From Clostridiales bacterium (GTDB lineage: Bacteria; Bacillota; Clostridia; Oscillospirales; CAG-272): a DNA stretch of 17,580 bases. The stretch covers positions 1 through 17,580 of the forward strand of contig DXYE01000055.1 in assembly GCA_019415985.1 (NCBI GenBank). Reading direction: 5' to 3'. The translations under genes and the position numbers were made by a program. This document shows positions 1-17,580 of the stretch, in pieces. Every line of letters begins with the position of its first letter. Within the stretch, counting starts at the first letter, position 1. The notes beneath the pieces are model-generated. The model was given only the letters and a program-made list of their open reading frames with translations. It was not told the origin of the DNA and did not search any database.

Positions 1-111
1 GTTATATAATCCATGATATAATTATTTCATGAAAAACCGAGGTTAGGGATTTATGTCTGACAAAATGCTTCGTATGTAAATCCAATTTTAGAATGAAAGG
101 CTGGAGAAAAA

Positions 112-768
112 ATGCAAAAAAACTTATATTCGTTGATTCTATCAGAAAATGTGGTAGCAGCAGTTGACCGGCTGGCACATTCTATGAATACCAATCGCTC
201 CAATATGGTCAACCAAATATTGGCAGAATATGTTTCCTATGTTACGCCGGAAAAAAGAATGCGGCAGATTTTTCAGCGACTGGAGGCTATCCTGTCTCAG
301 GGGGGGGACTTTCAGATATTGGCACAGCCCTCGGATTCCGTATTTCAGCTAAGATCAGCCTTGGCATTTAAGTATAATCCGACGGTCCGTTACAGTGTCG
401 AGCTGTTCAGACGTACCGCTACGGGGGCAGGAGAACTCCGTGTTTCACTGCGTACGCAAAACAGCACACTCGGATTGTATATCCTTCAGTTCTTCAAGCT
501 TTGGACTAAAATAGAGCATAGTTATCGTCCTGAAACGGAAAGTGCTTTAGAAGACGGGAAGTTCGTCAAAAAACTGAATGTACACTTGCCTCAGGAAAAC
601 GCAGAAGGCGGCCCTGAGCTTTTAGCCAGCGCAATTTCAGCATATATAAATGCATTTGATTCGGCAATGAAAGCATTTTTCTATCAGATCAACAACCCAA
701 ATGCAGCGGCTGAGGAGGTAGAGCGAATTTATAAGAATTATATTGGAAGCTGCGAATATCCGATATAG
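112..768 (+). CDS. Ribbon-helix-helix (CopG/Arc/MetJ-like) domain protein with a ~170 aa C-terminal domain of unknown function; putative transcriptional regulator
   Basis: The N-terminal segment YSLILSENVVAAVDRLAHSMNTNRSNMVNQILAEYV has the beta-strand/helix/helix pattern typical of RHH DNA-binding domains. GGAG lies 7 nt upstream of ATG 112. The gene ends 78 nt upstream of clpB on the same strand. Confidence 0.5.
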   Translation: MQKNLYSLILSENVVAAVDRLAHSMNTNRSNMVNQILAEYVSYVTPEKRMRQIFQRLEAILSQGGDFQILAQPSDSVFQLRSALAFKYNPTVRYSVELFRRTATGAGELRVSLRTQNSTLGLYILQFFKLWTKIEHSYRPETESALEDGKFVKKLNVHLPQENAEGGPELLASAISAYINAFDSAMKAFFYQINNPNAAAEEVERIYKNYIGSCEYPI

Positions 769-846
769 CGTCAGATCACAAAATGGAAGCATGATATTAA
801 TTATAAAGGAAAGGAAACCTCTCGAACAAAGAGGGCGGGAAGCTAT

Positions 847-3447
847 ATGAATCTGCAAAAATTCACACAAAAAAGCATAGAGGCCGTACAGGCCGCGCAG
901 AGCATGACCATAGCAAGCGGAAATCAGCAGATGGGTCAGGAGCATCTGTTGCTTGCGCTTACAGAACAGCAGAATGGCCTGATTGCCGAGCTGTTTCGCA
1001 AAGCCGGCGCATCGCCGGAATCCATTTCCGCATCTCTGCGTCAGGCTATCGAACGTTTGCCTAAGGTAAGCGGAGGCATTGAACCTGATAAAATTTATAT
1101 ATCAAGAGACGTTGAACAAGCACTGACAGAAGCGGAACGTCAGTCGGAAAAAATGAAGGATGATTTTGTTTCCGTCGAGCATATTATGCTGGGAATTCTT
1201 CAGAAACCGCAGGAGAATATCAAACGGATCCTGACGGACGCCGGGGTGACAAAGGACAGCTTTCAGAAAGTACTGAAAGTAGTAAGAGGAAACCAGCATG
1301 TGACAACGGATAACCCGGAAGGTACCTATGATGTACTGAATAAATACGGGCAGGATCTTGTGGAGCTTGCCCGCCAGCAGAAACTTGATCCTGTCATCGG
1401 CAGGGATGATGAAATTCGTAATGTGATCAGAATTCTTTCCAGAAAAACAAAAAACAATCCCTGCTTGATAGGTGAACCGGGCGTGGGTAAAACGGCCATA
1501 GCAGAAGGATTGGCACTTCGAATCGTCCGTGGAGACGTACCGGATAACCTGAAAAACAGACGGCTGTTTTCGCTGGATATGGGGGCACTGATTGCCGGTG
1601 CAAAATTCCGTGGTGAGTTTGAGGAACGTCTGAAAGCGGTTCTCAATGAAATAAAGGCAAGCGATGGCAATATCATTCTCTTCATCGACGAGCTGCATAC
1701 GATTGTCGGAGCCGGAAAAAGCGACGGCGCAATGGATGCGGGAAATCTGCTCAAGCCCATGCTGGCCAGAGGAGAACTGCATTGCATCGGTGCAACAACC
1801 CTCAATGAATACCGGCAGTATATCGAGAAGGATGCGGCACTGGAACGGCGTTTCCAGCCGGTCATGGTAGATGAGCCGACGGTTGAGGATACCATTTCCA
1901 TTCTCCGAGGATTGAAGGAACGATATGAGGTATATCATGGCGTAAAAATCCAGGACCAAGCGCTGATAGCTGCGGCTGTACTGTCCAACCGGTATATTTC
2001 CGACCGTTTTTTGCCGGATAAGGCGATCGATTTGGTTGATGAAGCATGCGCGTTGATCAAAACCGAGATCGACAGCATGCCAACGGAAATGGATGAAATT
2101 TCGCATAAAATTATGCAGTTGGAAATTGAAGAGGCTGCCTTAAAGAAGGAAAAGGATAAGCTCTCAGAAGAGCATCTGCATCAGATTCAAGAGGAATTGG
2201 CAAATGACCGCGACCGCTTTACTTCTATGAAGGCGAAATGGGAGAACGAAAAGCAGTCGATTGAAAAGGTGCAAAAGCTCCGCGAGGAAATCGAGCAGAC
2301 GAACGCGCAGATTGAACGTGCACAGAATGAATATGATCTGGGACGCGCTGCGGAATTGAAATATGGAAAACTGCCTCAGCTCCAGAAAGAACTGGCGGAG
2401 CAGGAGGCGAAAGCCGAAACCAATAAAAACACACTGCTGCGCGACCGTGTCACAGAGGAAGAGATTGCACGGATTGTAGCGAGATGGACAGGAATACCGG
2501 TCTCTAAACTTATGGAAGGGGAACGGGAAAAGCTGCTGCATCTGGATGATACGCTTCACGCACGTGTAATCGGACAGGATGAAGCGGTAGAAAAGGTGTG
2601 TGACGCCATACTCCGTTCCCGCGCAGGCATTCAGGATCCGAGACGCCCGATCGGCTCCTTCCTGTTTCTGGGACCGACCGGCGTTGGAAAAACGGAGCTG
2701 GCAAAAGCATTGGCGCAGGCGTTGTTCGACGATGAGCACAATATGGTGCGTATCGATATGAGCGAATATATGGAGAAATATTCCGTATCTCGCCTAATCG
2801 GAGCGCCCCCCGGTTACGTTGGATATGACGAAGGCGGTCAGCTAACGGAAGCTGTACGCAGAAAGCCTTACGCGGTTGTTTTGTTTGACGAGGTAGAAAA
2901 GGCGCATCCCGATGTGTTCAATGTACTGCTGCAGGTACTTGACGACGGAAGAATTACCGACAGCCAGGGAAGAACCGTTGACTTTAAAAATACCATTATC
3001 ATTATGACGTCAAACCTCGGTTCAGATATCATACTCGATGGCATAGAGAGCAACGGAGAAATCAGCACACAGGCGCGTGAAAGCGTATCCTTGCTGCTCA
3101 AACGCAGTTTCCGTCCCGAATTTCTTAACCGGTTGGATGAGATCGTATTCTACAAACCGCTGACGAAGGAGAATATTTACGGTATTGTAGATTTGCTGAT
3201 TGCTGATTTGGAAAAACGGCTGTCTGAGAAGCAGCTTCACATTACCGTGACCAATGCTGCCAAGGATTATATAATGGAACAAGGATACGATCCGGTTTAC
3301 GGCGCCCGTCCGCTAAAACGTTTTCTACAGTCACGCGTGGAGACGTTGCTGGCCAGAAAAATGATTGCTGAGGATCTGGAGCCGGGTACTCGGCTGACGG
3401 TGGATGTGGTAAACGGAAACCTTCAAGCCGAGGCATCAACTAAATAA
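847..3447 (+). CDS. clpB: ATP-dependent chaperone ClpB (Hsp100 disaggregase)
   Basis: 866 aa. N-terminal Clp repeat domain. Two AAA+ modules with Walker A motifs [15 protein letters not shown] and [16 protein letters not shown] long coiled-coil middle domain ([21 protein letters not shown]...) sits between the two NBDs, and the sensor/C-terminal D2 small domain is present. This is the typical ClpB length and architecture. Confidence 0.95.
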
Positions 3448-3491
3448 GTGCGATTGAGCGCAAAAACGTATTTGGGGAGCATTATGAAGTA

Positions 3492-3537
3492 CAAGGGGCT
3501 TTTTGATAAAAGGCCCCTTGTGCTTTCTGTTTTTATT
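3492..3537 (+). terminator. Rho-independent terminator downstream of clpB
   Basis: Hairpin caaggggc-tttttgataaaa-ggcccctt (8 bp GC-rich stem) is followed by a T-rich tract gtgctttctgtttttatt. It starts 45 nt after the clpB stop. Confidence 0.7.
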
Positions 3538-3642
3538 ACGATTCTGCTTTTGATGACCGATGTCATACTCACCGGCATCTGCATCGGATTTTTGTTCGCA
3601 AACATGGATGCACCTGCCAAAAGCACCGGTTTACTGACCTCA

Positions 3643-3671
3643 TTGCTTTTTCGTCTCCAATATGCTATAAT
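3643..3671 (+). promoter_or_regulatory. Sigma-A type promoter with extended -10 (TTGCTT - 17 nt - TGcTATAAT) driving the WYL regulator genes
   Basis: -35 TTGCTT at 3643-3648, exact 17 nt spacer, TG at 3663-3664 and TATAAT at 3666-3671. The predicted TSS is ~3678, about 50 nt upstream of the first WYL ORF start. Confidence 0.55.
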
Positions 3672-3728
3672 GTGCACGGCATAAAATTTTTCGATACGAC
3701 TTAAAAACGAAAAAAGGGGGTGAACAGT

Positions 3729-4982
3729 ATGTCCTCTTACAGCGAGTTGATTAAGAATTTTGAAAAGATCCGCAGCTATATGCGCGAGTTTTATGTATAC
3801 GGCTTTAAGAGCCGGGAGGATTACGACAAAAAGAGCGCACGTTCTTACGATGATGAGCGTCGCCGCATGGAAAGCTGGCTTGGCAATCATATGAGTTTTA
3901 TACGAACACCGGAAGGTAAGACCATGTTCATCTCCATTGACAGCCGGGTGTCCCATCACAATCCTCTATATAAAGCCCTGAAGGCAAAGAGCTTTACCGA
4001 CAGAGACATTACGCTTCATTTCATCCTATTCGATATTCTGCATAGCCCCGATGTGAGCCTTTCGCTGCCCGAAATTCTGAATCGACTCGATTCTTATTTG
4101 TCCGAATTTGAAGCGATGATGGTTTTCGATGAGTCAACCCTAAGAAAGAAACTAAAGGAGTACATCGAACAGGGCGTCATTACCGCTGAAAAGGTCGGCA
4201 GAAAAATGATGTACCGAAGAGCAGAGAACACCGAAATCGGAAATCTTGGTGATGTTCTGCATTATTATTCCGAGGTTGCCCCGTGCGGCGTGATCGGTTC
4301 TTTTCTTCTTGATAAAGAGGACAAGGACGGATCTCTTTTCAGTTTTAAGCATCATTACATAACCGGCGCCATAGATAGCAATGTGCTGGCAATGCTTTTT
4401 ACGGCCATGCAAAAGAAAAGCGTTGTCACCGTATCCAATTTCAGCCGACGAGCCGACGAGCCGAGAAGAAACCGAATCATTCCGCTTCGTATTTTCATCA
4501 GCGTGCAAAACGGCAGGCAATACCTTCTTGCGTATCAGCCCGACTTCAACGTGATCAAATCCTTCCGTATTGATTACCTATCGGATGTAAAAATTGAAGA
4601 ACGTACGCCCCGTTTTGATGAGCTGCGGGCTGAGCTTGTTAGGATGCAGCCGAAAATGTGGGGTGTTACCGCAAAGAAGAACCGATACGGCGAAGAGCGG
4701 GTGGAGCACGTAGATTTTACCGTAAAGATCGGTAAGGGAGAGGCATATATTATCCGCCGTCTTGAGCGAGAGAAGCGAAACGGTAAGGTAGAGAAGATTG
4801 ATGATCAAACCTGGCGTTTTACCGCCGATGTGTACGATACAAGCGAAATGATTCCGTGGATTCGCACATTCATTTGCAGAATCACGAAACTGAATTTCTC
4901 CAACCGAACTGTTGAAAATCAATTCAAGCGTGACCTTGCAGAGATGTACCGTATGTATGGTATCGGGGAGGCGGAAGTTTGA
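3729..4982 (+). CDS. WYL domain-containing transcriptional regulator (HTH-WYL-WCX architecture, PafB/PafC/BrxR/CapW-like) with a ~100 aa N-terminal extension
   Basis: Winged-helix segment LPEILNRLDSYLSEF...STLRKKLKEYIEQGVITAEKVGRKMMYRR. WYL-like core RIIPLRIFISVQNGRQYLLAYQPDFNVIKSFRIDYL. C-terminal WCX-like tail EMIPWIRTFICRITKLNFSNRTVENQFKRDLAEMYRMYG. Best start is ATG 3729, where GGGGGTG lies 6 nt upstream; the ORF track used GTG 3720. Confidence 0.6.
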   Translation: MSSYSELIKNFEKIRSYMREFYVYGFKSREDYDKKSARSYDDERRRMESWLGNHMSFIRTPEGKTMFISIDSRVSHHNPLYKALKAKSFTDRDITLHFILFDILHSPDVSLSLPEILNRLDSYLSEFEAMMVFDESTLRKKLKEYIEQGVITAEKVGRKMMYRRAENTEIGNLGDVLHYYSEVAPCGVIGSFLLDKEDKDGSLFSFKHHYITGAIDSNVLAMLFTAMQKKSVVTVSNFSRRADEPRRNRIIPLRIFISVQNGRQYLLAYQPDFNVIKSFRIDYLSDVKIEERTPRFDELRAELVRMQPKMWGVTAKKNRYGEERVEHVDFTVKIGKGEAYIIRRLEREKRNGKVEKIDDQTWRFTADVYDTSEMIPWIRTFICRITKLNFSNRTVENQFKRDLAEMYRMYGIGEAEV

Positions 4983-4994
4983 AAGATTTATCTT

Positions 4995-6020
4995 TTGAAG
5001 CCTGTTTTGTGCATTTCTCCGCCCAAGTGGGCAGCGATTTTGCTTGGTAATCCCCACACAATACCGAAAGAAGGATGCTTTCGCTACACGAAAGCTATGG
5101 TCATAGGAATGATATTCAATGAGATCTATTCTGCCTACTATAATACTGTTGCAAAGGTTATTTCAGAGATCCTCGACGGGAACATTTCGGAAAAGGATCT
5201 GAACCGAATCGTTTGCGACAATGCTTTCGGTGAGAGCATACTCACCATCCTTCCATCTCTGAAAAACGGGAAGTGGCCGTTGATCAAGTCCGATATGACC
5301 ACGCCTCTGAAGCACAAGCCCTCCATGCCCCTGACGCTTATTCAAAAGCAGTGGCTGAAGGCAGTATCTCTTGACCCACGTATCAGACTTTTTGGCGTGG
5401 AATTTCATGGTCTCGACGATGTGGAACCGCTTTTCACTTCTGAGGATTACGTGGTTTACGATAAATACGGAGACGGCGATCCTTATTGGGATGAAGAATA
5501 TATTGCAAGATTTCGTACGGTTTTGTCTGCTTTGAAGAACCAGAAGCCCTTAAAAATTACAACGGTCAATCGCAGGAGCAATTTGATTTCAATGAACGTT
5601 ATGCCAACAAGATTTGAATATTCCGAAAAGGATGATAAGTTCCGATTGATCTGTACCGGATGCCGGTACGGAGGCGTTGTGAATCTTGCACGGATGGTTT
5701 CATGCGAAATTTGCACAGTCGCAGATTTTGAATGCCGTCCATCTGTCCAACCTATTAAAAAAACGATAACCCTTCGTATTCTCGATGACCGCAATGCTTT
5801 GGAACGTGCAATGCTTCACTTTGCACACTTTGAAAAGCAGGCAGAGCAAATCGACAGTACCCATTATCTTGTACGCATTCGATATGATAAAGACGATGAA
5901 ACTGAAATGGTGATTCGTATTTTGAGCTTTGGTCCGATGGTAGAGGTAATGGAGCCCGAGAGTTTCAGAAAATTGATAACGGATCGCCTACAAAGGCAGA
6001 AAAGCTGTGGACTTTTTTAA
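4995..6020 (+). CDS. Second WYL domain-containing regulator (WYL-WCX). The start codon is ambiguous: TTG 4995, TTG 5040, ATG 5097 or ATG 5109.
   Basis: WYL-like segment KITTVNRRSNLISMNVMPTRFEYSEKDDKFRLICTGCRYGGVVNLARMVSCEI. Very typical WCX C-terminus EMVIRILSFGPMVEVMEPESFRKLITDRLQRQ. The reading frame is the same as the upstream WYL ORF, and a single TGA (4980-4982) separates them. Confidence 0.55.
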   Translation: MKPVLCISPPKWAAILLGNPHTIPKEGCFRYTKAMVIGMIFNEIYSAYYNTVAKVISEILDGNISEKDLNRIVCDNAFGESILTILPSLKNGKWPLIKSDMTTPLKHKPSMPLTLIQKQWLKAVSLDPRIRLFGVEFHGLDDVEPLFTSEDYVVYDKYGDGDPYWDEEYIARFRTVLSALKNQKPLKITTVNRRSNLISMNVMPTRFEYSEKDDKFRLICTGCRYGGVVNLARMVSCEICTVADFECRPSVQPIKKTITLRILDDRNALERAMLHFAHFEKQAEQIDSTHYLVRIRYDKDDETEMVIRILSFGPMVEVMEPESFRKLITDRLQRQKSCGLF

Positions 6021-6037
6021 GTTCGCAGCTTTTTTTC
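6001..6037 (+). terminator. Possible weak intrinsic terminator or first hairpin of the downstream structured region
   Basis: aaagctg (6001-6007) pairs with cagcttt (6026-6032) as a 7 bp stem. The 18 nt loop contains the stop codon. A T tract runs 6030-6036. Confidence 0.3.
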
Positions 6038-6170
6038 CGTGTTTATTGCTTTATAAACTGGTAAAATATGCTTGCAAGGACGCTTCAAGCGTGTGTTTGA
6101 GATCAACTTTCACCGCGGTACACCTGGCTATGCCGACGTGTATGCCAGAAGTTTCTCTTGCTCCGTGAAA

Positions 6171-6342
6171 TCGAGAAAGAGTGAAAGCTCTCGAATCGAT
6201 GGGGTCAACTCCCCAAAAGGACCTGACAAGTCCGTCTAGCGCGGGTTCGAGTCCCGCCGTATGCAATGAAAGCATATCGCCAGTGGTTTGGTAGCGCCGG
6301 AAACGGCAAAAAAGCGGTGTGCGAAAGCACGCGAGATCGTTT
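6171..6342 (+). ncRNA. Candidate structured ncRNA with a tRNA-like module (anticodon-arm-like hairpin, perfect T-arm, downstream GNRA hairpins, T-run)
   Basis: Hairpins: cgaga-N12-tctcg (6171-6194); gggg-tcaact-cccc (6201-6214); ggac-ctgacaa-gtcc (6219-6233, a 7 nt loop with U33 and a 37-purine, anticodon-like GAC); T-arm gcggg-TTCGAGT-cccgc (6241-6257) matching the tRNA T-loop consensus; tatgc-aatgaaa-gcata (6260-6276); gccg-GAAA-cggc; tgtgc-GAAA-gcacg; then TTTTTT at 6337-6342. No convincing ORF. A canonical cloverleaf (acceptor stem, D-arm) cannot be completed. Confidence 0.3.
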
Positions 6343-6560
6343 TTTAATCTCAAAGCAATTGCTCGGCAGAACGCGAAGGAAATATTCTTTTGTCGAAGCA
6401 ATGCACCATCTGCCTTGTCTGAGAATGGATACCGTGAATCAAACAGACAAACCAAAAGAAAGTCTTTCCGTTTGCTTGTGAGACCACTCAAGTTTTTGGC
6501 CGCAGGTCGTGCATGAGCAATTGCAAACCGTATTTTGACCTTCAGGAGGTATTACATATA

Positions 6561-7661
6561 ATGAAAAAGATTATTGTTAATGAAAATCAAAGAGGCTTTC
6601 TTTTCAAAAACGGTAAGTATGTAAAAATGCTTACTTCCGGTAAATACTACGTTTGCGGCGGGAAGGAAATCGAAGTAGTAAATTTGAACCAGCCTATCGT
6701 ATCCAATCAATGTGCGTTAGATATTATTCTTAAGGATAAAACGGTTGCAAATGCCGTTTCAGTCGTCGAGGTAGCGGACGAGCAGCTTGCACTTCATTTT
6801 GTGAACGGAAAGTTTGCTTCTGTGCTCCGTCACGGTAAGTACGCTTTCTGGTCTGTTATCGACAAGCATGAGTATAAGCTTGTGGATATTTCTACGCCCG
6901 AAGTCAAGAGTGAGGTGCCTGAGTACATCTTCTCTAAAATCCCTGCTATCTATTACACAAAGATAGAAGTTTTGGAGTATCAGAAAGCAAGGCTTTACTT
7001 CAATCAGAAGCTCGTCAGAATTCTGGATGCAGGCACCTACTATTTCTGGAAAATCGGCGTTAAGATCGACGTTGATTTTGTGGATACCAGACTGACGCAG
7101 ATGAATATCACCGGTCAGGAGATTCTGACACGGGATAAGGTTTCACTCCGTATCAATTTCGTCTGCAACTACCGCGTGACAGATTGCGTAAAGATTCTTA
7201 CCGAGATTGATGACTTTGCAGAACAGATTCATGTCGCGGCACAGTTGGCTCTCCGTGAGTATGTAGGCCAATACAAGCTGGATGAAATACTTGAAAATAA
7301 AGCGCAGATGTCCGGGTTTGTATTTGATAAGTTAAAAGCAAAAGAAAAAGATCTGTTTGTGGAAATCAAGGATGCCGGCGTGAAGGATATTATTCTTCCC
7401 GGTGAGATCCGCGAGATCATGAACACCGTCCTGGTGGCTGAAAAGCGTGCGCAGGCCAATGTTATTTCACGCCGCGAGGAGATTGCCTCTACCAGGTCCC
7501 TCCTGAATACAGCAAAGCTGATGGAGGAAAATCAGACCCTTTATAAGCTCAAGGAGCTTGAATACGTCGAGCGTATCTGTGAGAATGTCGGCAACATCAA
7601 TTTGAACGGCAATGGAGATGTTTTAACTCAGCTTACAGGTATTCTCAGGGGCAATACTTAA
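6561..7661 (+). CDS. SPFH/band-7 (stomatin/prohibitin/HflK-like) domain protein with a triplicated N-terminal beta-strand module
   Basis: The C-terminal half (...VKDIILPGEIREIMNTVLVAEKRAQANVISRREEIASTRSLLNTAKLMEEN...) is typical of the SPFH helical region. The N-terminus has three repeats of the motif x-GflF-NGK-x-vL-x-GKYyFW: NQRGFLFKNGKYVKMLTSGKYYVCGG, EQLALHFVNGKFASVLRHGKYAFWSV and QKARLYFNQKLVRILDAGTYYFWKIG. GGAGG lies 11 nt upstream of ATG 6561; an alternative start is ATG 6513. Confidence 0.7.
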   Translation: MKKIIVNENQRGFLFKNGKYVKMLTSGKYYVCGGKEIEVVNLNQPIVSNQCALDIILKDKTVANAVSVVEVADEQLALHFVNGKFASVLRHGKYAFWSVIDKHEYKLVDISTPEVKSEVPEYIFSKIPAIYYTKIEVLEYQKARLYFNQKLVRILDAGTYYFWKIGVKIDVDFVDTRLTQMNITGQEILTRDKVSLRINFVCNYRVTDCVKILTEIDDFAEQIHVAAQLALREYVGQYKLDEILENKAQMSGFVFDKLKAKEKDLFVEIKDAGVKDIILPGEIREIMNTVLVAEKRAQANVISRREEIASTRSLLNTAKLMEENQTLYKLKELEYVERICENVGNINLNGNGDVLTQLTGILRGNT

Positions 7662-7733
7662 TTTTTATGTTCAGGTCGGAAGAAGCTGTTATATTGTTTT
7701 GCCTTCTATCGACTTTTCAGAAAGGAAATCATC

Positions 7734-8942
7734 ATGATAGAGATCATAGGAAAATACAACACCGCTAAGTGCTATACAAACGAGCTCGAAGATGGCGCCT
7801 GCGAGCAAATTAAGGCGATATGCAACGAAGAAGCGTTCGCAGCCTCCAAAATTAGAATTATGCCTGACGTACACGCCGGAAAGGGATGTACCATCGGCAC
7901 CACCATGACCATTGTTGATAAGGTGGTTCCCAATATGGTGGGCGTGGATATTGGTTGCGGCATGTATACTGTCAGCCTCGGAAAAGTCAATATCGACTTT
8001 GAAAAGTTTGACAGGGCGGCGCATTTTATTCCCTGCGGACGAAGTGTATGGGAGGGAAGACAGGAGAGATTTGATCTGACAGCTCTTCGCTGCTATCGAA
8101 ACCTCAAGGATACAAGAAGATTGGAAAGAAGTCTCGGAACTTTAGGCGGAGGAAACCACTTTATTGAGATTGATGCTGATACGGACGGAAACAAATATCT
8201 TATTCTTCACTCCGGAAGCCGGAACCTCGGTACGCAGGTGGCGGCGTACTATCAGGGCGTCGCTGTCGCTCTGAACCTTGGCAAAGAGGAGTATTTTCAG
8301 AAGAGAGACGATATCATCCGTACCTACAAAGAGGAGGGGCGCAGAAGTGAGATTCAGGCAGCCCTCAAGGCGTTATCGAACGAGTGGGAGGAAAAAGTGC
8401 CAACGATGCCCCGCGAGCTTTGTTACCTCTACGGCTCCTTTATGGAGGATTACCTCTATGATATCAACATCTGTCAGCAGTTTGCACGTCGCAATCGCGA
8501 AAAAATGGCGGAGATCTTACTCGAGAAGACAGAGCTTCCCTCGGGGCGCGCCTTCCATACGGTACATAACTATATTGACATGGAGGAGATGATCCTGCGC
8601 AAGGGGGCGGTTTCCGCAAAGGCAGGAGAGCAGCTTTTGATCCCCATCAACATGCGTGACGGAAGCCTGATCTGTATCGGCAGGGGAAACAGGGATTGGA
8701 ACAATTCCGCGCCACATGGTGCAGGTCGTCTGATGTCTCGCTCTATTGCCTTTGAAAGACTTACTCTGGAGGAGTACACGGCGCAAATGGCGGGTATCTA
8801 CTCGACCTGCGTGAATTCCTCTACCCTTGATGAGTCTCCTATGGCATACAAAAACATGGCCGAGATCGTGGAGAATATCGAGCCGACGGCCGAGATTATT
8901 GCCCACATAAAGCCTATTTACAATTTCAAAGCGGCAGAGTAA
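7734..8942 (+). CDS. rtcB: RNA-splicing ligase RtcB (3'-phosphate/5'-OH RNA ligase)
   Basis: Collinear with E. coli RtcB motifs: IMPDVHAGKGCTIGTT, VGVDIGCGM, LGTLGGGNHFIEID, LHSGSRNLG, HNYI, RKGAVSAKAG, SAPHGAGRLMSR and C-terminal SPMAYKNMAEIV. 402 aa. Confidence 0.9.
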   Translation: MIEIIGKYNTAKCYTNELEDGACEQIKAICNEEAFAASKIRIMPDVHAGKGCTIGTTMTIVDKVVPNMVGVDIGCGMYTVSLGKVNIDFEKFDRAAHFIPCGRSVWEGRQERFDLTALRCYRNLKDTRRLERSLGTLGGGNHFIEIDADTDGNKYLILHSGSRNLGTQVAAYYQGVAVALNLGKEEYFQKRDDIIRTYKEEGRRSEIQAALKALSNEWEEKVPTMPRELCYLYGSFMEDYLYDINICQQFARRNREKMAEILLEKTELPSGRAFHTVHNYIDMEEMILRKGAVSAKAGEQLLIPINMRDGSLICIGRGNRDWNNSAPHGAGRLMSRSIAFERLTLEEYTAQMAGIYSTCVNSSTLDESPMAYKNMAEIVENIEPTAEIIAHIKPIYNFKAAE

Positions 8943-8951
8943 AAAAACAGA

Positions 8952-8984
8952 AGCATTGCGCGGTACGGCAGTGCTTTTGTTTGT
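8952..8984 (+). terminator. Rho-independent terminator downstream of rtcB
   Basis: agcattgc-gcggtacg-gcagtgct (8 bp stem including one G-U) is followed by tttgtttgt. It begins 10 nt after the rtcB stop. Confidence 0.7.
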
Positions 8985-9215
8985 ATATGGACGATCATTT
9001 GACTGTCTTAAGTGTGTTGCGGTGAGGCAGGACTTGGGATATACCGAATGGGAAAAGGCCACGCTTAACGACGGAAGAGGCGTCGATATATTCCGGCATC
9101 GAATAAAACCCCCTGTCCGTGAGCATCCAAATGGAGAGAATTACGTATCCGGCTCAAAAATGCTTGTTGTGCGAATTCGCAGGGTTATACGGAGTTGTGT
9201 GCTTTACCGGATCCC

Positions 9216-9233
9216 CTGTCTGATGCCAGACAG
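9216..9233. repeat. Perfect inverted repeat / hairpin CTGTCTG-ATGC-CAGACAG
   Basis: 7 bp perfect stem with a 4 nt loop, inside an ORF-poor 670 nt region. No T-run follows. Confidence 0.5.
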
Positions 9234-9428
9234 TCATACAAGGCGCACAATACCCGGTATACATGTAAAATCAAGATCCTGAGCGGAAAAAATGAAGGAA
9301 TATGGAAAGCGTCCGTGATACCGGACCGGTCCCGCAATATAAGCTTTGCTGTTCGGCAGCGTTTTCCGCTGTTACAGGACGCATGGAATCCCTTTACGCA
9401 CTGTAAGAGCTATTTATTCAAAGAAATC

Positions 9429-9448
9429 GCGGACGCTCAGGCGTCCGC
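9429..9448. repeat. Perfect GC-rich inverted repeat / hairpin GCGGACGC-TCAG-GCGTCCGC
   Basis: 8 bp perfect stem with a 4 nt loop. No T-run. An adjacent 10 nt palindrome GGACCGGTCC lies at 9323-9332. Confidence 0.5.
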
Positions 9449-9662
9449 ACGGGATTTGCCGCCGACCGCTGTGGTATTGAAATACTCTTTCATCTATTCG
9501 CTTCATAACTGCTGCATTGCTGAAAGGTACAAAATGCCTGATAAATCCATATCCCGACCCATGAAATATGTACATTGTTATAAGGAAAGACTCTTTACAT
9601 TTTTTGGAATTTATGCTATACTTTTGTCAGTTAGTTGTATATAATGGAACGGAGGATGGCAA

Positions 9663-10517
9663 ATGACGAGATCTTTTGTAAAAATGCACGGCTGCGGTAA
9701 CGATTACATTTACTTTGATTGCCTTAAGGAGATGCTCGAATCACCGGAAAGCGCTGCAATTGCACTGTCAGACAGGCACTTCGGTATTGGCGGAGACGGT
9801 ATCGTCCTTATTTGTCCCTCCGACTGCGCAGATGTGAAAATGCGTATGTTCAATATCGATGGCTCTGAGGGAAAAATGTGCGGCAACGCTATTCGTTGCG
9901 TTGCAAAGTATGTATATGACAGCGGCATCGTACAGCGCAAAGCCATGACCGTTGAGACATTGTCCGGAATCAAAAAGCTGGAGGTCTTTATACCTCCGGA
10001 AGAAACCAAAGTCAGGACCGTACGGGTGGATATGGGACCGGCATCCTTTTTGCCGCAGTCGATCCCAGTAAAATTGGATGGGGAAGCCGTCATTGCAAGG
10101 CAGGTGACAGTCGGCGGCGAGCTACGGCAAATCACCTGCGTTTCCATGGGGAATCCCCACGCAGTGATCTTTCTGCATGAAGAAACCGATCTCGAATACT
10201 TTGATGTGAAGGGAATAGGGAGGTCTATTGAATTCGATCCGCTTTTTCCGGAAAGAGTAAATGTAGAATTCGTAAAAAAATTATCGGAAAATACATTTCA
10301 AATGCGGGTATGGGAGCGCGGAAGCGGAGAAACGTGGGCATGCGGAACCGGTGCATGCGCTGTGGCGGCAGCAGCGGTGAAGAACGGCCTGTGCCGGGAA
10401 GGTGAAGAAATCACGGTGAAACTGCGCGGCGGAGATCTGACGATTGTGTATGCACAAGACAAGGTGACCATGAGCGGAGGGGCCACTGAGGTTTTCCGCG
10501 GCTGTGTGGAGTTATAA
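9663..10517 (+). CDS. dapF: Diaminopimelate epimerase
   Basis: MHGCGNDYIYFD start. Catalytic cysteine motifs MCGNAIRCVAKY and WACGTGACAVAAAA. GNPHAVIF motif. 284 aa. GGAGG lies 7 nt upstream of the ATG. Confidence 0.93.
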   Translation: MTRSFVKMHGCGNDYIYFDCLKEMLESPESAAIALSDRHFGIGGDGIVLICPSDCADVKMRMFNIDGSEGKMCGNAIRCVAKYVYDSGIVQRKAMTVETLSGIKKLEVFIPPEETKVRTVRVDMGPASFLPQSIPVKLDGEAVIARQVTVGGELRQITCVSMGNPHAVIFLHEETDLEYFDVKGIGRSIEFDPLFPERVNVEFVKKLSENTFQMRVWERGSGETWACGTGACAVAAAAVKNGLCREGEEITVKLRGGDLTIVYAQDKVTMSGGATEVFRGCVEL

Positions 10518-10711
10518 TGCCATAGAAAGACATTAAATCGATTGACTGCAAAAAAATATTATGATATGGCTTGTTTTCTGTTTTAGAGATTTCAATTGTT
10601 TTTGCTGTCCGTGCGGTGGTGAAATGACACTTTTGTAAAATTCGTAAGAATAATTTTAACAGCAATAGCGATGCATCTATTGATTTTAAATGCAGAGAGG
10701 AATGAGAGCGC

Positions 10712-11905
10712 ATGAAACTTAACAAAAACTATTTAAAACTGAAAAGCAGCTATCTCTTTTCTGATATTGCGCAGAAGGTAGCCGCATACCGTGCAGAGCA
10801 TCCAGATCGGAAGATCATCAGCCTGGGAATCGGTGACGTGACACAGCCGCTGACGCCGGCAGTCATCGAGGCCATGCACAGAGCCGTCGGGGAAATGGCA
10901 CGAGCCGAAACATTCCGGGGATACGGTCCGGAACAGGGCTATGTGTTTCTGCGGGAAGCTATTCAAAGCTATTATACGGGATACGGTGTAAAACTCGGTC
11001 TTGATGAAATTTTTGTAAGCGATGGCGCCAAAAGCGATCTCGGAAACATTCTTGATCTGTTTTCAAAGGAAAATGTTGTGCTGATCCCCGATCCTGTATA
11101 TCCTGTCTATGTAGATACCAATATAATGGATGGCCGGAAAATTGTATATATGAAAGCGACGGCAGATAACGGCTGTCTGCCAATGCCGGATGAGTTGACA
11201 GACACGCATGCAGACATTATTTATTTATGCTCGCCCAACAATCCGACAGGAGCTGTCTATACACGGGACCAGCTTGCCAAATGGGTCTCTTATGCTATTG
11301 AACAAAATGCACTGATTCTCTTTGACGCTGCATATGAAGCGTTTATTTCCGATGAAAACTGTCCGCACAGTATATATGAAATAAACGGAGCCGAAAAATG
11401 TGCAATTGAATTTTGCTCTCTATCTAAATCTGCCGGATTTACGGGTACACGTTTGGGGTATACGGTTGTGCCGCATACGTTGGCGGAGGACGGCGGAATG
11501 TCTCTGAATAAAATGTGGCTGAGACGTCAGACAACTAAATTTAACGGTGTTTCCTATGTGGTTCAAAGAGCAGCAGAAGCACATTTTTCGCCGGAGGGAC
11601 AGAAGCAGTCGCAGAAGCTAGTTGGTTATTATAAAGAAAATGCAAAGATTTTGATGCAGGCGCTCGACAGTGCCGGTATTTCTTACACCGGCGGTAAAAA
11701 TTCTCCGTATTTATGGATGCGCTGCCCTTATGGAATGCAGTCATGGACGTATTTTGATAAGCTTCTTCACGAGGCTCAGGTTGTGGGAACGCCTGGTGCT
11801 GGATTCGGAGAACAGGGAGAAGGATATTTTCGGTTAACCGCATTCGGTAGCCGCGAAGACGCGCTTGAGGCATCTCAGAGAATCAAAAGCCTTACTGTTG
11901 GATAA
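10712..11905 (+). CDS. dapL: LL-diaminopimelate aminotransferase (DapL-type, PLP-dependent aminotransferase class I)
   Basis: N-terminus NKNYLKLKSSYLFSDIAQKVAAYRAEHPD is characteristic of DapL. The PLP-lysine region is SLSKSAGFTGTRLGY. 397 aa. It lies directly downstream of dapF. Confidence 0.85.
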   Translation: MKLNKNYLKLKSSYLFSDIAQKVAAYRAEHPDRKIISLGIGDVTQPLTPAVIEAMHRAVGEMARAETFRGYGPEQGYVFLREAIQSYYTGYGVKLGLDEIFVSDGAKSDLGNILDLFSKENVVLIPDPVYPVYVDTNIMDGRKIVYMKATADNGCLPMPDELTDTHADIIYLCSPNNPTGAVYTRDQLAKWVSYAIEQNALILFDAAYEAFISDENCPHSIYEINGAEKCAIEFCSLSKSAGFTGTRLGYTVVPHTLAEDGGMSLNKMWLRRQTTKFNGVSYVVQRAAEAHFSPEGQKQSQKLVGYYKENAKILMQALDSAGISYTGGKNSPYLWMRCPYGMQSWTYFDKLLHEAQVVGTPGAGFGEQGEGYFRLTAFGSREDALEASQRIKSLTVG

Positions 11906-11959
11906 CCGAGCTTGCTAGTCGAGGCTGTCTGATTCTTTAGACGATGTTATGGGAAATAC

Positions 11960-11993
11960 GGGCGAAAGTCATAAAGACCTTCGCCCTTTTTAT
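11960..11993 (+). terminator. Rho-independent terminator downstream of dapL
   Basis: gggcgaa-N13-ttcgccc (7 bp stem) is followed by tttttat. Confidence 0.75.
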
Positions 11994-12444
11994 TGTATAT
12001 ACGAAATAAAACGCAGAAATTTAAAAGACCGCTGCTCCGAAAAAGACAAACAAGTAAAACAAAACGATCATTTTAAAGTTATAACATTTATCGGGCGAGC
12101 ATATATAATAGAATAGTGGAAGTAAATATCTAAAGTGGAGAGAAAGACTCTAATAAAAAATATAAATAAATGAATTGAGCCATTTGAGGTCCTCAGCAGA
12201 TAAATTTTTGTATAAATAGACTGCATGTCAAGAGAAGATGGGATAGCGGGTTAAAAAAAGTTTAATGAGAATTTAGAGCAGATGACGTTAGTTGCTTCAG
12301 AGTTTTTATCCGTGATAGATGATAAATGGATACGATGCAGACTGATGAAAGAACTGAAACTACCGATGCTGGATCTATAAGTAGTTCATTGTCATACGAG
12401 GATATTGTCTTTCCAGGATTGAATTCATTAAAAGGAAAGGTGAG

Positions 12445-12780
12445 TTGGGCGCTAGTTCCGACGGTAAAGATATGAGTTGCTGTGTATGTATTAAAAAGCT
12501 CCGGGACAAGGAAGTCATAAATATCTGTGACGGAAAGAGACTGGGGTTTGTCGATGACGTCGAAATTGATGTAAGCTGCGGCCGCGTGGTATCTCTTGTT
12601 GTTTTTATGGACGATGGCAAATGCTTTTCTATTGGTAAAGGAGAGGAAGTTATGGTCCCATGGGACCGTATTGAAAGAATTGGCGACGATGTAATCCTTG
12701 TCAATATCAATGTGGAAGAGTGCAGAATCTGCGGCCGGGGAGAAGGCGAACGCGAGAAAAAAAAGAAAGGCTTTTTTTAA
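12445..12780 (+). CDS. YlmC/YmxH-family PRC-barrel protein (sporulation-associated family) with a Cys/Lys-rich C-terminal tail
   Basis: KEVINICDGKRLGFVDDVEIDVSCGRVVSLVV matches the conserved YlmC/YmxH core (E-[IV]-IN...G.[RK]LG.[IV].D). The start is either TTG 12445 (AGGAAAGG upstream) or ATG 12472. Confidence 0.55.
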   Translation: MGASSDGKDMSCCVCIKKLRDKEVINICDGKRLGFVDDVEIDVSCGRVVSLVVFMDDGKCFSIGKGEEVMVPWDRIERIGDDVILVNINVEECRICGRGEGEREKKKKGFF

Positions 12781-13008
12781 GCTGCATTATGAGTATCTAA
12801 ATTGAAAGCTTAATTGTATCGTTTACATATCGTTATCTGGGGACAATCGGTGCCGTTGTCTGACTCTGATGCGCCGGTTTTCCCGGATTTTATGCGTTGT
12901 AAAGTTAAGATTTGGCAGTCAATATTAATGTGAAAATAAAAGAAGCAGCAAGGACACTAAAGGTAACGGGATCTAAATGTAAAATAAATGTGAATAAACA
13001 TTGTTGTG

Positions 13009-13037
13009 TTGCGCATTTCCAATATTTATGCTATAAT
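13009..13037 (+). promoter_or_regulatory. Promoter with extended -10 (TTGCGC - 17 - TGcTATAAT) upstream of rpsB
   Basis: TG at 13029-13030 and TATAAT at 13032-13037. The -35-like TTGCGC lies at 13009-13014. A ~125 nt leader follows before rpsB. Confidence 0.45.
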
Positions 13038-13039
13038 AT

Positions 13040-13166
13040 ACCAGAATGCAATGTATTTGTTGCATGAAATATTACACACATAACGGAATGTAGCGGATGG
13101 TGCCGAGCGTTCGGTCTGCGCACAGAGAGCCGTTATGGTGGAACAACCAGAAGGAGGACATGCAAT
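13040..13166 (+). other. rpsB 5' leader (possible S2 autoregulatory structure)
   Basis: ~125 nt untranslated leader between the promoter and GGAGG-ATG. It contains the dyad gcatgaaa.../tgcaatg and ccgagcgttcgg elements. In other bacteria the rpsB leader is known to be autoregulated by protein S2; this was not modelled here. Confidence 0.25.
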
Positions 13167-13922
13167 ATGTCGATTATTACCATTAAACAGCTGCTTGAGG
13201 CTGGCGTTCATTTCGGACATCACACCAGAAGATGGAACCCTAAAATGGCAGAGTATATTTTTACGGAGAGAAACGGTATCTATATTATCGATTTGCAGAA
13301 GACTGTAAAAAAGTTTGAAGAAGCCTATATGTTTGTACGTGACATGGCTGCGGAAGGCGGAACTTTGCTTTTTGTAGGCACGAAAAAGCAGGCTGCAGAT
13401 GCTATTCGTGAGGAAGCGCAGCGCTGCGGAATGTATTTTGTAAACGTTAGATGGCCGGGCGGCATGATGACCAATTTTCAGACTATAAAGAAATCTATTG
13501 CACGCCTGAATAACCTCGAAAAAATGCGCGATGACGGAACATTTGATCTCCTGCCTAAAAAGGAAGCTGCGGCTTTGGTAAAAGAAATAAACGATCTTCA
13601 AAAGAACCTGGGCGGTATCAAGACGATGAGTACACTGCCGTCTGCCATCTTTATCGTAGATCCTAAAAAAGAAAAAAATGCTGTTGCTGAAGCGAAAAAG
13701 CTGGGCATACCTGTCATTGCTATTGTAGATACCAACTGTGACCCTGATGATGCGGATTATATCATTCCCGGTAATGATGACGCGATTCGCGCAATCAAAT
13801 TAATCTCGTCCGTTCTGGCTGATGCCGTTATCGAAGGACGTCAGGGCGAGCAAATGGAAGAGGCAGCGGAGGAAACTGAGGAGCAGACAGAGGCATCGGC
13901 TGAAGAGAATGCTGCCGAATAA
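13167..13922 (+). CDS. rpsB: 30S ribosomal protein S2
   Basis: [32 protein letters not shown]... is the canonical S2 N-terminus. It has an acidic C-terminal tail. 251 aa. Confidence 0.97.
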
Positions 13923-14052
13923 CGCCGAATAACAAAGATTAAAATTGAAAATTTCTTACGGACGATTTATCATGATGAATCATTGCGTCCTAAAATGAAT
14001 CAAGAAAGGATTCCTGTCGGTTCCCGTTTGAAGACAGGAAGGTGAAAAGAAG

Positions 14053-14979
14053 ATGGCAAATATTTCGGCAAAAGATGTAGCAGCCCTTCGTGCAAAAACT
14101 GGCTGTGGCATGATGGAATGCAAAAAGGCGCTTGTGGAAGCTGACGGCAACATGGACGAAGCCGTAAAAGTCCTTCGTGAAAGAGGACTCGCGGTTGCAG
14201 CTAAAAAAGCCGACCGCATTGCCGCGGAAGGAATTGTCGATATCCTGGTGGAAAACGATGCAGCGGCAATCATAGAGGTCAACAGCGAAACAGACTTTGT
14301 TGCAAAAAATGACACCTTTAAGGCCTTTGTTAAGACGCTACTGGAAACCATTTTGAAAAACCGTCCCTCAGATGTTGAGGCCCTTATGGCCAGCAAGTAC
14401 GCTGACAGTGACATGACCGTAGAAGCAAAAATGAAGGATATGATTTTTACAATCGGTGAAAATATGAGTATTCGCCGCTTTGAAATTGTTGAAGGTATCC
14501 TCAGCTCTTATATTCACGGAAAAGGTTCTATCGGTGTTATCGTCACATTTGACGCCGATGAGAATGCAAAGCAGAATCCTGGCTTTGCAGAATTTTCAAA
14601 GAATATTGCATTGCAGGTAGCCGCACTCCCTGTACAATACCTCAATAAAGAGGCTGTTCCGGCGTCTGTGCTGGAGGATGAGAAGCAGATTCTGATGACA
14701 CAGATTAAGAACGACCCTTCCAACAGCAAGAAGCCTGAGCAGATTATTGAAAAAATGGTAAACGGACGAATTGGAAAATTTTATGAGCAGAATTGCCTCA
14801 TGGAACAGGGATATGTCAAGGATGATTCTTTAAAGGTAGGTCAATATGTTGAAAATACTGCTAAAGAGTTCGGCGGGAACATCAAGGTTACAGGCTTTAT
14901 AAGATATGAAAAAGGAGAAGGTCTCCAGAAAAGAGAAGAAAATTTCGGAGAAGAGATTGCTAAAATGATTCAGAAGTAA
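14053..14979 (+). CDS. tsf: Translation elongation factor Ts
   Basis: MANISAKDVAALRAKTGCGMMECKKALVEADGNMDEAVKVLRERG is the canonical EF-Ts UBA-like N-terminus. 308 aa. It lies immediately downstream of rpsB. Confidence 0.97.
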   Translation: MANISAKDVAALRAKTGCGMMECKKALVEADGNMDEAVKVLRERGLAVAAKKADRIAAEGIVDILVENDAAAIIEVNSETDFVAKNDTFKAFVKTLLETILKNRPSDVEALMASKYADSDMTVEAKMKDMIFTIGENMSIRRFEIVEGILSSYIHGKGSIGVIVTFDADENAKQNPGFAEFSKNIALQVAALPVQYLNKEAVPASVLEDEKQILMTQIKNDPSNSKKPEQIIEKMVNGRIGKFYEQNCLMEQGYVKDDSLKVGQYVENTAKEFGGNIKVTGFIRYEKGEGLQKREENFGEEIAKMIQK

Positions 14980-15013
14980 GAGTGGTTATTTAAGCATATT
15001 TGAACCGAAAAAG

Positions 15014-15056
15014 GAGTCTGAGACATGCATACGTGTTTCAGACTCTTTTGCTTCTG
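15014..15056 (+). terminator. Rho-independent terminator downstream of tsf
   Basis: gagtctgagaca-tgcatacg-tgtttcagactc (12 bp stem with one G-U) is followed by ttttgcttctg. Confidence 0.7.
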
Positions 15057-15172
15057 AAAAAACCACCGGATACTTCAGGATGAATGGGTACTTAAAAGAT
15101 GATCTGCGTATAAATATATATACACAAAAAATACGGATAAAATGAAGGTAAACAAGAGAAAGGAAATAAGGA

Positions 15173-16651: not shown

Positions 16652-16704
16652 ATATTCAGACCGCTTTAAGGGGATCAAAAACAAAATTACAAGTGCATTG
16701 TACA

Positions 16705-16746
16705 CCCACGCGCCAGCAAGCCGGCGTGCGGGGCGGGCGTTTCTTA
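16705..16746 (+). terminator. Possible terminator (GC-rich dyad plus short T tract) after the deacetylase gene
   Basis: cacgcgcc-agcaagcc-ggcgtgcg dyad and ggggcgggcg are followed by tttctt. The geometry is imperfect. Confidence 0.3.
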
Positions 16747-16777
16747 AATTACGACAAATAATTGAAAGGAATCAGCG

Positions 16778-17476: not shown

Positions 17477-17538
17477 AGGGGGATGGAGCAAATTCTAAAA
17501 AATAGAATCATATTTTTGTAATTAAATTTTTAAATCTC

Positions 17539-17567
17539 TTGCTAAACTTTGTATCTTGTGGTATAAT
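17539..17567 (+). promoter_or_regulatory. Near-consensus sigma-A promoter (TTGCTA - 17 - TGgTATAAT) reading out of the window
   Basis: -35 TTGCTA at 17539-17544, exact 17 nt spacer, extended-10 TG at 17559-17560 and TATAAT at 17562-17567. No gene start lies within the remaining 13 nt. Confidence 0.6.
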
Positions 17568-17580
17568 ATACACGACGTAG

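Follow-up and report, generated by a model that had tools for sequence, protein, structure and literature searches.

Which kind of element fills the 540-nucleotide (nt) gap between a tandem pair of WYL/WCX-domain genes and an SPFH/stomatin-like (Band-7) gene followed by rtcB in a Clostridiales bacterium (Oscillospirales, CAG-272; assembly GCA_019415985.1)? The window analysed here is the whole stretch of 17,580 nt (contig DXYE01000055.1, positions 1 to 17,580 of the forward strand), in which the original prediction, made from the letters alone, had pointed out a perfect T-arm of the transfer RNA (tRNA) type among several hairpins and had proposed a structured, tRNA-mimicking, Y-RNA-like non-coding RNA (ncRNA) tied to the RtcB cassette, with a decayed tRNA as the null alternative. 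We have hardly any doubt that the gap encodes a real, selected and structured plus-strand RNA with a permuted tRNA mimic. As seen from the comparison of related loci, the predicted region makes up the middle of one RNA of ~450 nt that has been conserved jointly with the SPFH gene downstream of it, and this predicted RNA falls into four parts: a 5' domain, a set of variable arms, a YrlA-type permuted tRNA mimic, and a 3' rod domain.

For the comparison, 80 loci were fetched by SPFH protein from species-representative genomes (Oscillospiraceae and other Clostridia for the most part, with a single Lentisphaerae), and conservation was compared by BLASTN and MAFFT. A gap of ~500 nt between a gene for a protein of ~310 amino acids (aa) and the SPFH gene recurs in nearly all fetched loci; the gap was found to be conserved in 77 genome loci, and overall more than 120 loci preserve it in front of an SPFH gene. 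Four blocks are conserved across it (6021-6041, 6060-6150, 6240-6292 and 6400-6520), and its least conserved stretch (6160-6240) is the one that holds most of the hairpins of the original prediction, including an anticodon-like arm; the hairpins found there (P4, P5 and the anticodon-like arm, P6) vary among relatives in both sequence and presence. Base pairing was evaluated in three alignments, covering the 3' rod (n=66, window 6394-6538), the 5' part (n=62, 6059-6171) and the tRNA-like centre (n=52); paired cells were counted per helix, and the same helices with their partners slid served as control.

In the rod of the 3' domain (P9 to P12), 90.3% of the cells pair (36-43% when slid) and 30 of the 33 pairs have changed on both sides, giving a covariation score of 0.638 (0.11-0.14 when slid) that none of 500 shuffles reached. 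The long-range helix P8, which closes this domain and encloses the variable hairpin H6, pairs in 85.4% of cells as compared to 30-45% when slid, and each of its 10 pairs has changed on both sides. Between these helices lie the conserved internal loops GCCUUG, GGAUACCG, CCAAAAG, CUUUCCGC, CUCAAG and GCCGC, and the GGAUACCG anchor lies at a constant ~130 nt from the start codon (ATG) of SPFH. Within the 5' domain, in which the long-range helix P2 encloses P3 and the hairpin H1, 98.2% of the cells pair (31-57% when slid), with both-side changes in 11 of 18 pairs and full compensation in P2 (e.g. GUAAAC/GUUUAC, CAAAG/CUUUG and GCAGG/CCUGC). As H1 contains invariant U.G and G.U pairs, and as G.U pairs are frequent and A.C pairs rare throughout, the RNA can be placed on the plus strand. 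At the junction of P3 and H1 (6111-6120) we observed a near-palindrome, CACCGCGGUA, which becomes a perfect CACCGCGGUG in relatives with C at the fourth position; this fourth base varies freely among relatives, and the reverse complement resembles the T-box consensus. A T-box leader (RF00230) was nevertheless rejected: Rfam gave no match, and the T-box-like string is the reverse complement of CACCGCGGUAC and thus lies on the minus strand, opposite to the strand on which the G.U evidence places the RNA.

Taken together, the RNA comprises ~15 plus-strand helices between ~6074 and 6524, so that the discrete species of ~100-200 nt originally envisaged gives way to a conserved RNA of ~450 nt, to which a 5' domain and a large rod domain on the 3' side also belong and in which, as the alignment of relatives revealed, most helices are compensated. 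When the comparative helices are laid on the window (6074-6530), 99 of 102 pairs are canonical, 80 of them occur in the minimum free energy (MFE) fold, and enforcing the whole costs 2.4 kcal/mol relative to that fold; the plus strand of 6040-6345 folds better than its shuffles at z = -2.8, a value that is unconvincing alone. The individual hairpins named in the original prediction all exist, i.e. GGGG-UCAACU-CCCC, GGAC-CUGACAA-GUCC, the T-arm GCGGG-UUCGAGU-CCCGC, UAUGC-AAUGAAA-GCAUA (6260-6276) and the two GAAA-capped hairpins GCCG-GAAA-CGGC and GUGUGC-GAAA-GCACGC (6317-6332), as does a minus-strand open reading frame (ORF) at 6051-6491. The hairpin cgaga/tctcg and the run of six T are likewise present, although their positions had been misplaced (6172-6176/6189-6193 rather than 6171-6194, and 6340-6345 rather than 6337-6342, respectively).

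The centre of the RNA is where the tRNA likeness resides. A stem of 5 base pairs (bp) with the loop U54-U55-C56-R57-A58 is found at 6241-6257; this T-arm pairs in 100% of the cells (52 sequences), 21 of which show both-side changes (GCGGG/CCCGC, GUGGG/CCCAC, GCAGG/CCUGC), and its loop is nearly invariant. The strand CGUAUGC on its 3' side pairs with the downstream GCAUA(U)CG, forming the capped hairpin H3, and not with an upstream strand; H3 is 90% paired, has both-side changes in 6 of 7 pairs, and, as it directly abuts the T-stem, takes the place of the acceptor stem. It is succeeded by a D-like hairpin (95.5% paired, one pair changed on both sides) with a conserved UGG(U/A)UUGG block, and the three elements together are 94.5% paired as compared to 25-46% when slid. 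It had been held that neither an acceptor stem nor a D-arm could be formed and that the fold reproduces the 3' two-thirds of a tRNA; instead, the capped acceptor-like H3 and the D-like hairpin lie 3' of the T-arm and complete a permuted mimic (T, capped acceptor, D) of the kind seen in YrlA (PMC4201824). In the most distant locus (L080), a canonical D-arm (AGCUCAGUGGUAGAGU) occupies the position of the D-like hairpin, and the Rfam YrlA model aligns locally to the T-acceptor-D segment with 25.3 bits (E = 0.0046, gathering score 69). Upon un-permuting the module in silico (acceptor 5' strand, D-like hairpin, P6, T-arm, acceptor 3' strand), ARAGORN called a tRNA in 2 of 57 constructs (L012 as Asp, L041 as Val), the bulged acceptor defeating the program.

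The variable arms upstream of the T-arm are present or absent in blocks: short forms have P6 only, others P4 and P5, and minimal forms none. P5, which is T-loop-like, reads GGGGUUCAACUCCCC in most relatives that carry it (in 22 of 69 loci) and is degenerate in the window. The arm with the triplet GAC, originally taken for the anticodon arm of a tRNA, sits at the variable-arm position (P6), and its CU-NNN-AA loop occurs in ~23 of 69 loci with changing triplets (GUC, GUA, GAC, GUU, UUG, UUU, AUC and UUC). We observed that 14 of these 23 loci bear a GUN triplet (GUC 8, GUA 4, GUU 2); GUN anticodons are those of the queuosine tRNAs that colicin E5 cleaves, and the preference may reflect shared ancestry only. 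In some relatives (e.g. L001, L002, L007, L010, L027 and L028), P4 contains an internal loop AUGAG...CUCUGA (including CUGAUGAG) that resembles a C/D-box or a kink-turn; this loop has no Rfam match and the P4 of the window is without it. A hammerhead reading of CUGAUGAG in the P4 of relatives was also discarded, as Rfam gave no match.

Between the tRNA-like centre and the 3' domain, hairpins with different sequences occupy the positions of H4 and H5 in relatives too, and the U-tract that follows H5 is kept in the clade of the window only. In this clade, H5 and its U-tract (6314-6345) may act as an attenuator at which a part of the transcripts stop, yielding a short form of ~270 nt. Since a consensus terminator scan called none in 5800-6800, we use 'terminator-like' for this element, and for the hairpin at the end of WYL2 (the second WYL gene) described below, by inspection only.

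Known RNA families were compared with Rfam 15, run at the gathering score and also at E <= 10 over 5950-6620 (gathering scores: tRNA RF00005, 29 bits; YrlA RF02553, 69 bits). In the window, ARAGORN recovered no tRNA or transfer-messenger RNA (tmRNA), and Rfam gave no match at the gathering score and only noise at E <= 10, the YrlA and tRNA covariance models being without any match even there and those of tmRNA without a significant one; in agreement with the original prediction, the element is thus not a functional tRNA gene. Two relatives come close to the tRNA model, with scores just below 29 bits (28.2 in L040 and 28.7 in L080). A tmRNA was rejected on the same grounds (none called by ARAGORN, and only T-arm-sized model fragments, with 11.8 bits in the window and ~18 bits in relatives). 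What the RNA shares with tRNAs is a canonical T-arm, a D-like loop with GG, a stack of ~12 bp formed by the acceptor-like helix and the T-stem, and a 7-nt loop with U33 and A37; it differs from them in its permuted strand order, in the 'anticodon' that varies among relatives, and in an acceptor (H3) that is capped and whose two strands continue into the RNA, leaving no free 3' end and no CCA.

The permuted order is that of the YrlA Y RNAs, in which an optional V stem-loop, the T-arm, a capped acceptor-like stem (AS) and the D-arm follow each other (Chen et al. 2014, PMC4201824): P6, the T-arm, H3 and the D-like hairpin succeed one another in the same way, with H3 at the position of AS, and both RNAs occur in RtcB RNA-repair neighbourhoods and are co-transcribed with the operon, which for the window is predicted. 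The RNA of the window is nevertheless about four times as long, possesses additional 5' and 3' domains and has a short D-loop of 6 nt; its partner is SPFH and not Ro60, and the YrlA model found no match in 5950-6620 at E <= 10. No TROVE/Ro60 (rsr) domain was found among the long ORFs of the window scanned against Pfam. The only strand resembling the Ro60-binding GNCGAA(N)G is GUCGAAG at 6392-6398, which is not conserved in the alignment, and the ends of the RNA are closed by P2 and P8. The prediction of a structured, tRNA-mimicking and Y-RNA-like RNA is hence borne out, whereas membership in YrlA, an rsr gene and a Ro-binding module are not.

A closer contextual counterpart comes from the account given in bioRxiv 10.1101/312249, which relates a prediction by Burroughs and Aravind (2016) that some bacterial RtcB genes adjoin Band-7 genes and an unvalidated 'band-7-associated tRNA', or b7a-tRNA, characterises this RNA as 'strongly resembling an authentic tRNA', and mentions that YrlA occasionally adjoins Band-7 genes. 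By this secondary description, the window holds the same arrangement (a tRNA-resembling ncRNA adjoining Band-7/SPFH and RtcB genes), and differs in the permuted order of its conserved fold, which forms part of an RNA of ~450 nt. We consider that the element is almost certainly a b7a-tRNA or a close relative of it, an identity that fits the context and is compared with, rather than proven by, the description in that source. In our literature search, the name b7a-tRNA was found in this preprint only, and no description was found of the permuted fold, the ~450-nt size, the 5' and 3' domains, the promoter box or the WYL pair.

Large 'ornate' ncRNAs of bacteria (OLE, ROOL, GOLLD and raiA) are several hundred nt long, have many covarying helices, occur in Bacillota and are of unknown function. 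The RNA described here shares with them its size, the many covarying helices, the conserved internal loops and the distribution in Bacillota, and differs from them in having a fixed protein-gene partner and a tRNA mimic, with no similarity in sequence or Rfam model. The Salmonella rsr-yrlBA-rtcBA operon, whose rtc genes are induced by tRNA fragments via RtcR (PMC7790460), likewise combines an RNA-repair ligase, a tRNA-like ncRNA and an upstream ligand-sensing regulator; in the window, however, two WYL/WCX proteins stand in place of a sigma-54 CARF activator, the promoter appears to be of the sigma-70 type (-10 only), and both RtcA and Rsr are lacking.

The association with the SPFH gene was also recovered starting from the RNA. 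A metagenome scan with a pattern derived from H1 returned 51 loci, and 37 of the 38 whose downstream sequence reaches 700 nt or more have an SPFH gene there, on the same strand; the 5' domain, from which the pattern was taken, thus accompanies SPFH, and the rod's GGAUACCG motif is present as well in most of these metagenome loci. The rtcB gene comes next in most loci, and does not do so in L027, L048, L059, L063, L035 and several metagenome loci. The proposed tie to the RtcB cassette accordingly holds as an SPFH-rtcB linkage, with SPFH rather than rtcB as the tight partner. Clostridia of the gut and rumen carry the RNA widely, and Oscillibacter valericigenes Sjm18-20 (L055, AP012044.1) offers a cultured and fully sequenced carrier. 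In a subset of loci (L037:5318-5983, L013, L050, L204, L205 and L249) we observed that the RNA is separated from SPFH by an extra ORF of ~220 aa, for which no Pfam family exceeded the threshold. Among viral contigs, a scan with a 14-base pattern of the 3' domain produced chance matches only, and a scan for the promoter box produced one contig (L201, viral-classed, IMGVR_UViG_3300045988_016381). This contig carries both WYL genes and the box, followed by a different leader (9780-10290) and rtcB, without SPFH; the leader consists of two units, each closed by GGCAYC...GRUGCC and then followed by a U-rich tract, and the first holds a body that resembles tRNA(Met-CAU) in normal order, scores 48.4 bits with the Rfam tRNA model and is not called by ARAGORN. 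A tRNA mimic in the leader therefore recurs in the WYL-box regulatory context.

Upstream of the RNA, the gap begins with an invariant 21-nt box, every position of which is at least 90% identical in 78 upstream regions and which is 100% identical in distant loci. It doubles as the 3' arm and U-tract of a terminator-like hairpin at the end of WYL2 (6000-6012 : 6021-6033), and is unchanged where the 5' arm of this hairpin or the WYL genes are missing or displaced; it is absent from a few distant loci without WYL genes. At a fixed distance from the box follows an extended -10 element preceded by TG, in the hexamer of which A2 and T6 are invariant, T1 is at least 90% conserved and the rest variable (62 sequences); no -35 hexamer is present, and a consensus promoter scan does not list the site at 6059-6067. 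Transcription would start near 6074, so that P2 would form the 5' end of the RNA. The position of the box is that of a class-II activator site, and the -35-less promoter is probably activator-dependent and controlled by the WYL pair, which occurs together with the box in most loci; the two WYL/WCX proteins are presumed to be transcription regulators of the SPFH-rtcB unit, and the box is a candidate operator for them. Locus L034 has an extra copy of the box directly after rtcB (L034:8333), and L024 has two boxes (3333/5514), one after WYL2 and one before the RNA, with inserted DNA between them. The string UUUCCG occurs in both the promoter box (6030-6039) and the P12 internal loop CUUUCCGC (6469-6476).

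We tentatively propose, with a confidence that falls slightly short of balanced, that the main role of the RNA is to serve SPFH and RtcB in trans, as a partner of the Y-RNA kind; when identity and mechanism are considered jointly, we hold the case to be evenly poised. Transcription from the -35-less promoter would run through the RNA, as the 5' leader of the SPFH-rtcB messenger RNA (mRNA), into SPFH and rtcB, and the RNA, probably processed from it, would partner the cage-forming and apparently soluble SPFH protein (cf. Ro and Y RNA, and the proposal of Burroughs and Aravind 2016). The rod or the 5' domain would bind the SPFH protein, the tRNA-shaped module would offer a tRNA-like elbow to RtcB or other tRNA-recognising factors, and the outcome would be that RNA repair and tRNA substrates are brought together, or that the substrates are mimicked. 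More speculatively, and with little probability in our estimation, the RNA and SPFH might constitute a vault-like or Ro/Y-like ribonucleoprotein devoted to RNA repair, with the tRNA decoy as a sacrificial sensor: tRNA-targeting toxins would cut the decoy, altering the fate of the leader or feeding WYL, and RtcB would reseal it. Control of the operon and recruitment of the ligase would then both fall to a damage fuse that resets itself.

Several observations weigh against a trans-acting partner as proposed. The start site, 3' end, processing and stability of the RNA are all inferred; the box persists at loci without a nearby WYL gene, for which reason its link to the WYL proteins is only correlative; and three loci (L025, L069 and L079) keep the 5' and 3' domains with no recognisable T-arm, so that the tRNA mimic is not indispensable everywhere. 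Furthermore, no terminator lies between the RNA and the ribosome-binding site (RBS) of SPFH and the spacing from RNA to ATG is constant, with which a cis-acting leader agrees at least as well as a trans-acting RNA. Such a leader, the main rival, which we consider possible and yet rather unlikely, would control SPFH-rtcB by attenuation at H5 and its U-tract, by RNA stability or by RBS access, and might perhaps sense damage: tRNA-targeting nucleases may cut the tRNA decoy and RtcB reseal it, with the output of the operon tracking damage, or the fragments may feed WYL sensors. It would account for the invariable place of the RNA immediately before the operon's first ORF, in the same orientation, for the terminator-like H5 and U-tract in mid-leader in the window's clade, and for the GC-helix-closed tRNA-like units, each followed by a U-rich tract, that immediately precede rtcB in L201, and the induction of the Salmonella rtc operon by tRNA fragments via RtcR provides a precedent for damage sensing (PMC7790460). 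On the other hand, ~450 nt and 15 helices far exceed the needs of known leaders, the U-tract of H5 is clade-specific, no conserved alternative pairing with the RBS was found, the RNA is kept also where rtcB is not adjacent, and cleavage of the decoy is only postulated.

As to the nature of the element itself, a tRNA cloverleaf in normal order (i.e. a b7a-tRNA as an authentic-looking tRNA) could be drawn, alone or as a switch with H1, P2 and H3, by pairing the acceptor GUGUAUG (6138-6144) with CGUAUGC (6258-6264) around the arm at 6219-6233. ARAGORN calls such tRNAs in L030 and L064, the Rfam tRNA model gives 28.2 bits in L040, the short-form relatives have exact tRNA dimensions, and the acceptor register pairs in 80% of cells (many of them G.U) as compared to 24-63% when shifted. 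All three strands are however held in compensated helices (H1, P2 and H3), the local D-stem GAAG...CUUG is not kept where P2 covaries, and 94 nt of extra arms separate the acceptor strand from the T-arm in the window, which no tRNA model matches; moreover, where acceptor position 1 has changed, the compensating change lies in H1 rather than in the presumed partner, and divergent loci lose the pairing, on account of which we regard this improbable fold as at most an alternative conformer. The invariance of the 21-nt box, which behaves like a protein-binding DNA site, would suit a gap conserved solely for DNA-level sites (e.g. WYL operators) and encoding no RNA; as pairing rather than sequence is conserved outside the box, hundreds of cells have changed on both sides, and G.U pairs are tolerated on one strand only, we give this explanation very little credence. 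Smaller still is the probability of a decayed tRNA (or former integration site) or of a minus-strand gene at 6051-6491. The former would explain a perfect T-arm without a detectable tRNA, and is countered by the compensatory changes seen across genera, which place the T-arm, H3 and the D-like stem under purifying selection, and by flanking genes that are chromosomal housekeeping ones; the latter can invoke an ORF of 146 codons, which has no Pfam match and is broken in the closest relatives (longest open stretch 76-100 codons vs 166 in the window), and whose protein is 52% identical where the DNA is 79% identical, with tblastn matches that hop frames. Two plus-strand ORFs in the gap were ruled out in the same manner (no Pfam family and no frame conservation).

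The element falls within a kind already proposed, namely the tRNA-mimic ncRNAs carried by RNA-repair operons; Rfam does not contain it, and the b7a-tRNA type of prediction has, by the secondary account, never been validated. If the findings are confirmed, a large multi-domain RNA would join the short list of big bacterial ncRNAs, the permuted tRNA mimic of the YrlA type would be in use outside Ro60 systems, and a handle would be gained on the targets of bacterial RtcB and soluble SPFH proteins, as well as on the tRNA look-alikes of RNA-repair operons. The coordinates of the RNA and of the genes around it are collected in Table 1.

Table 1. Positions, in the window, of the helices, promoter elements and genes at the SPFH-rtcB locus.
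Feature	Position	Strand	Remarks
ClpB gene	847-3447		window ORF, Pfam scan
WYL/WCX-domain protein 1	3720-4982	+	Pfam WYL and WCX; PADLOC WYL
WYL/WCX-domain protein 2 (WYL2)	4995-6020	+	in tandem with the first; Pfam WYL and WCX; PADLOC WYL
Gap between WYL2 and SPFH	6021-6560		540 nt
Invariant 21-nt box GTTCGCAGCTTTTTTTCCGTG	6021-6041	+	~-53 to -33 from the putative start
Extended -10, TGg-TAAAAT	6059-6067	+	hexamer 6062-6067 kept as TAnnnT
P2, GCAAG : CUUGC	6074-6078 : 6157-6161	+	long-range helix; covariation
P3	6093-6095 : 6111-6113	+	enclosed by P2; covariation
H1	6117-6123 : 6138-6146; inner 6126-6128 : 6132-6134	+	enclosed by P2; covariation
P4	6170-6174 : 6196-6200	+	variable arm; alternative of the original prediction 6172-6176 : 6189-6193
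P5, GGGG-UCAACU-CCCC	6201-6214	+	variable arm; T-loop-like hairpin
P6, GGAC-CUGACAA-GUCC	6219-6233	+	anticodon-like arm in variable-arm position
T-arm, loop UUCGAGU	6241-6257	+	5-bp stem; covariation
H3	6258-6259 : 6278-6279 and 6260-6264 : 6272-6276	+	capped acceptor-like hairpin; U6277 bulged; 7-nt loop 6265-6271
D-like hairpin, CCA-GUGGUU-UGG	6280-6291	+	GG conserved in loop
H4, GCCG-GAAA-CGGC	6296-6307	+
H5	6314-6316 : 6338-6340 and 6317-6322 : 6327-6332	+	bulge GAGAU
U6 run after H5	6340-6345	+	terminator-like element
P8	6355-6364 : 6515-6524	+	long-range helix, 10 bp; closes 3' domain
H6	~6370-6397	+	variable hairpin within P8
P9	6403-6413 : 6502-6512	+	rod
P10	6417-6426 : 6492-6500	+	rod
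P11	6434-6437 : 6484-6487	+	rod
P12	6446-6458 : 6464-6476	+	rod
RBS, AGGAGG	6544-6549	+	starts 20 nt past the end of P8
SPFH/stomatin-like (Band-7) gene	6561-7661	+	Pfam Band_7 5.5e-29; stomatin matches in PDB
RtcB gene	7734-8942	+	Pfam RtcB 4.6e-57

Apart from this locus, the window contains housekeeping genes (dapF, an aminotransferase gene, rpsB and tsf). PADLOC recognised the WYL proteins alone, so the locus is not a catalogued defence system. Directly 3' of rtcB lie two ORFs (8956-9282, 108 aa; 9195-9644, 149 aa) with no Pfam or NCBIfam family. In the Oscillibacter valericigenes locus, rtcB reads as two ORFs (L055:7113-7496 and L055:7518-8384), both matching Pfam RtcB, a split that could represent a frameshift, a pseudogene or recoding. 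A check of the reading frame established the ATG at 6561 as the true start codon of the SPFH gene; in its protein, no RNA-binding domain could be assigned and, by reading of the sequence, no N-terminal transmembrane segment was seen. For the family of this partner protein, the protein collection contains over 7,900 homologues, two of which (P0003 and P0004) are 637-638 aa long, i.e. about twice the usual length, and are 62% identical over the entire query.

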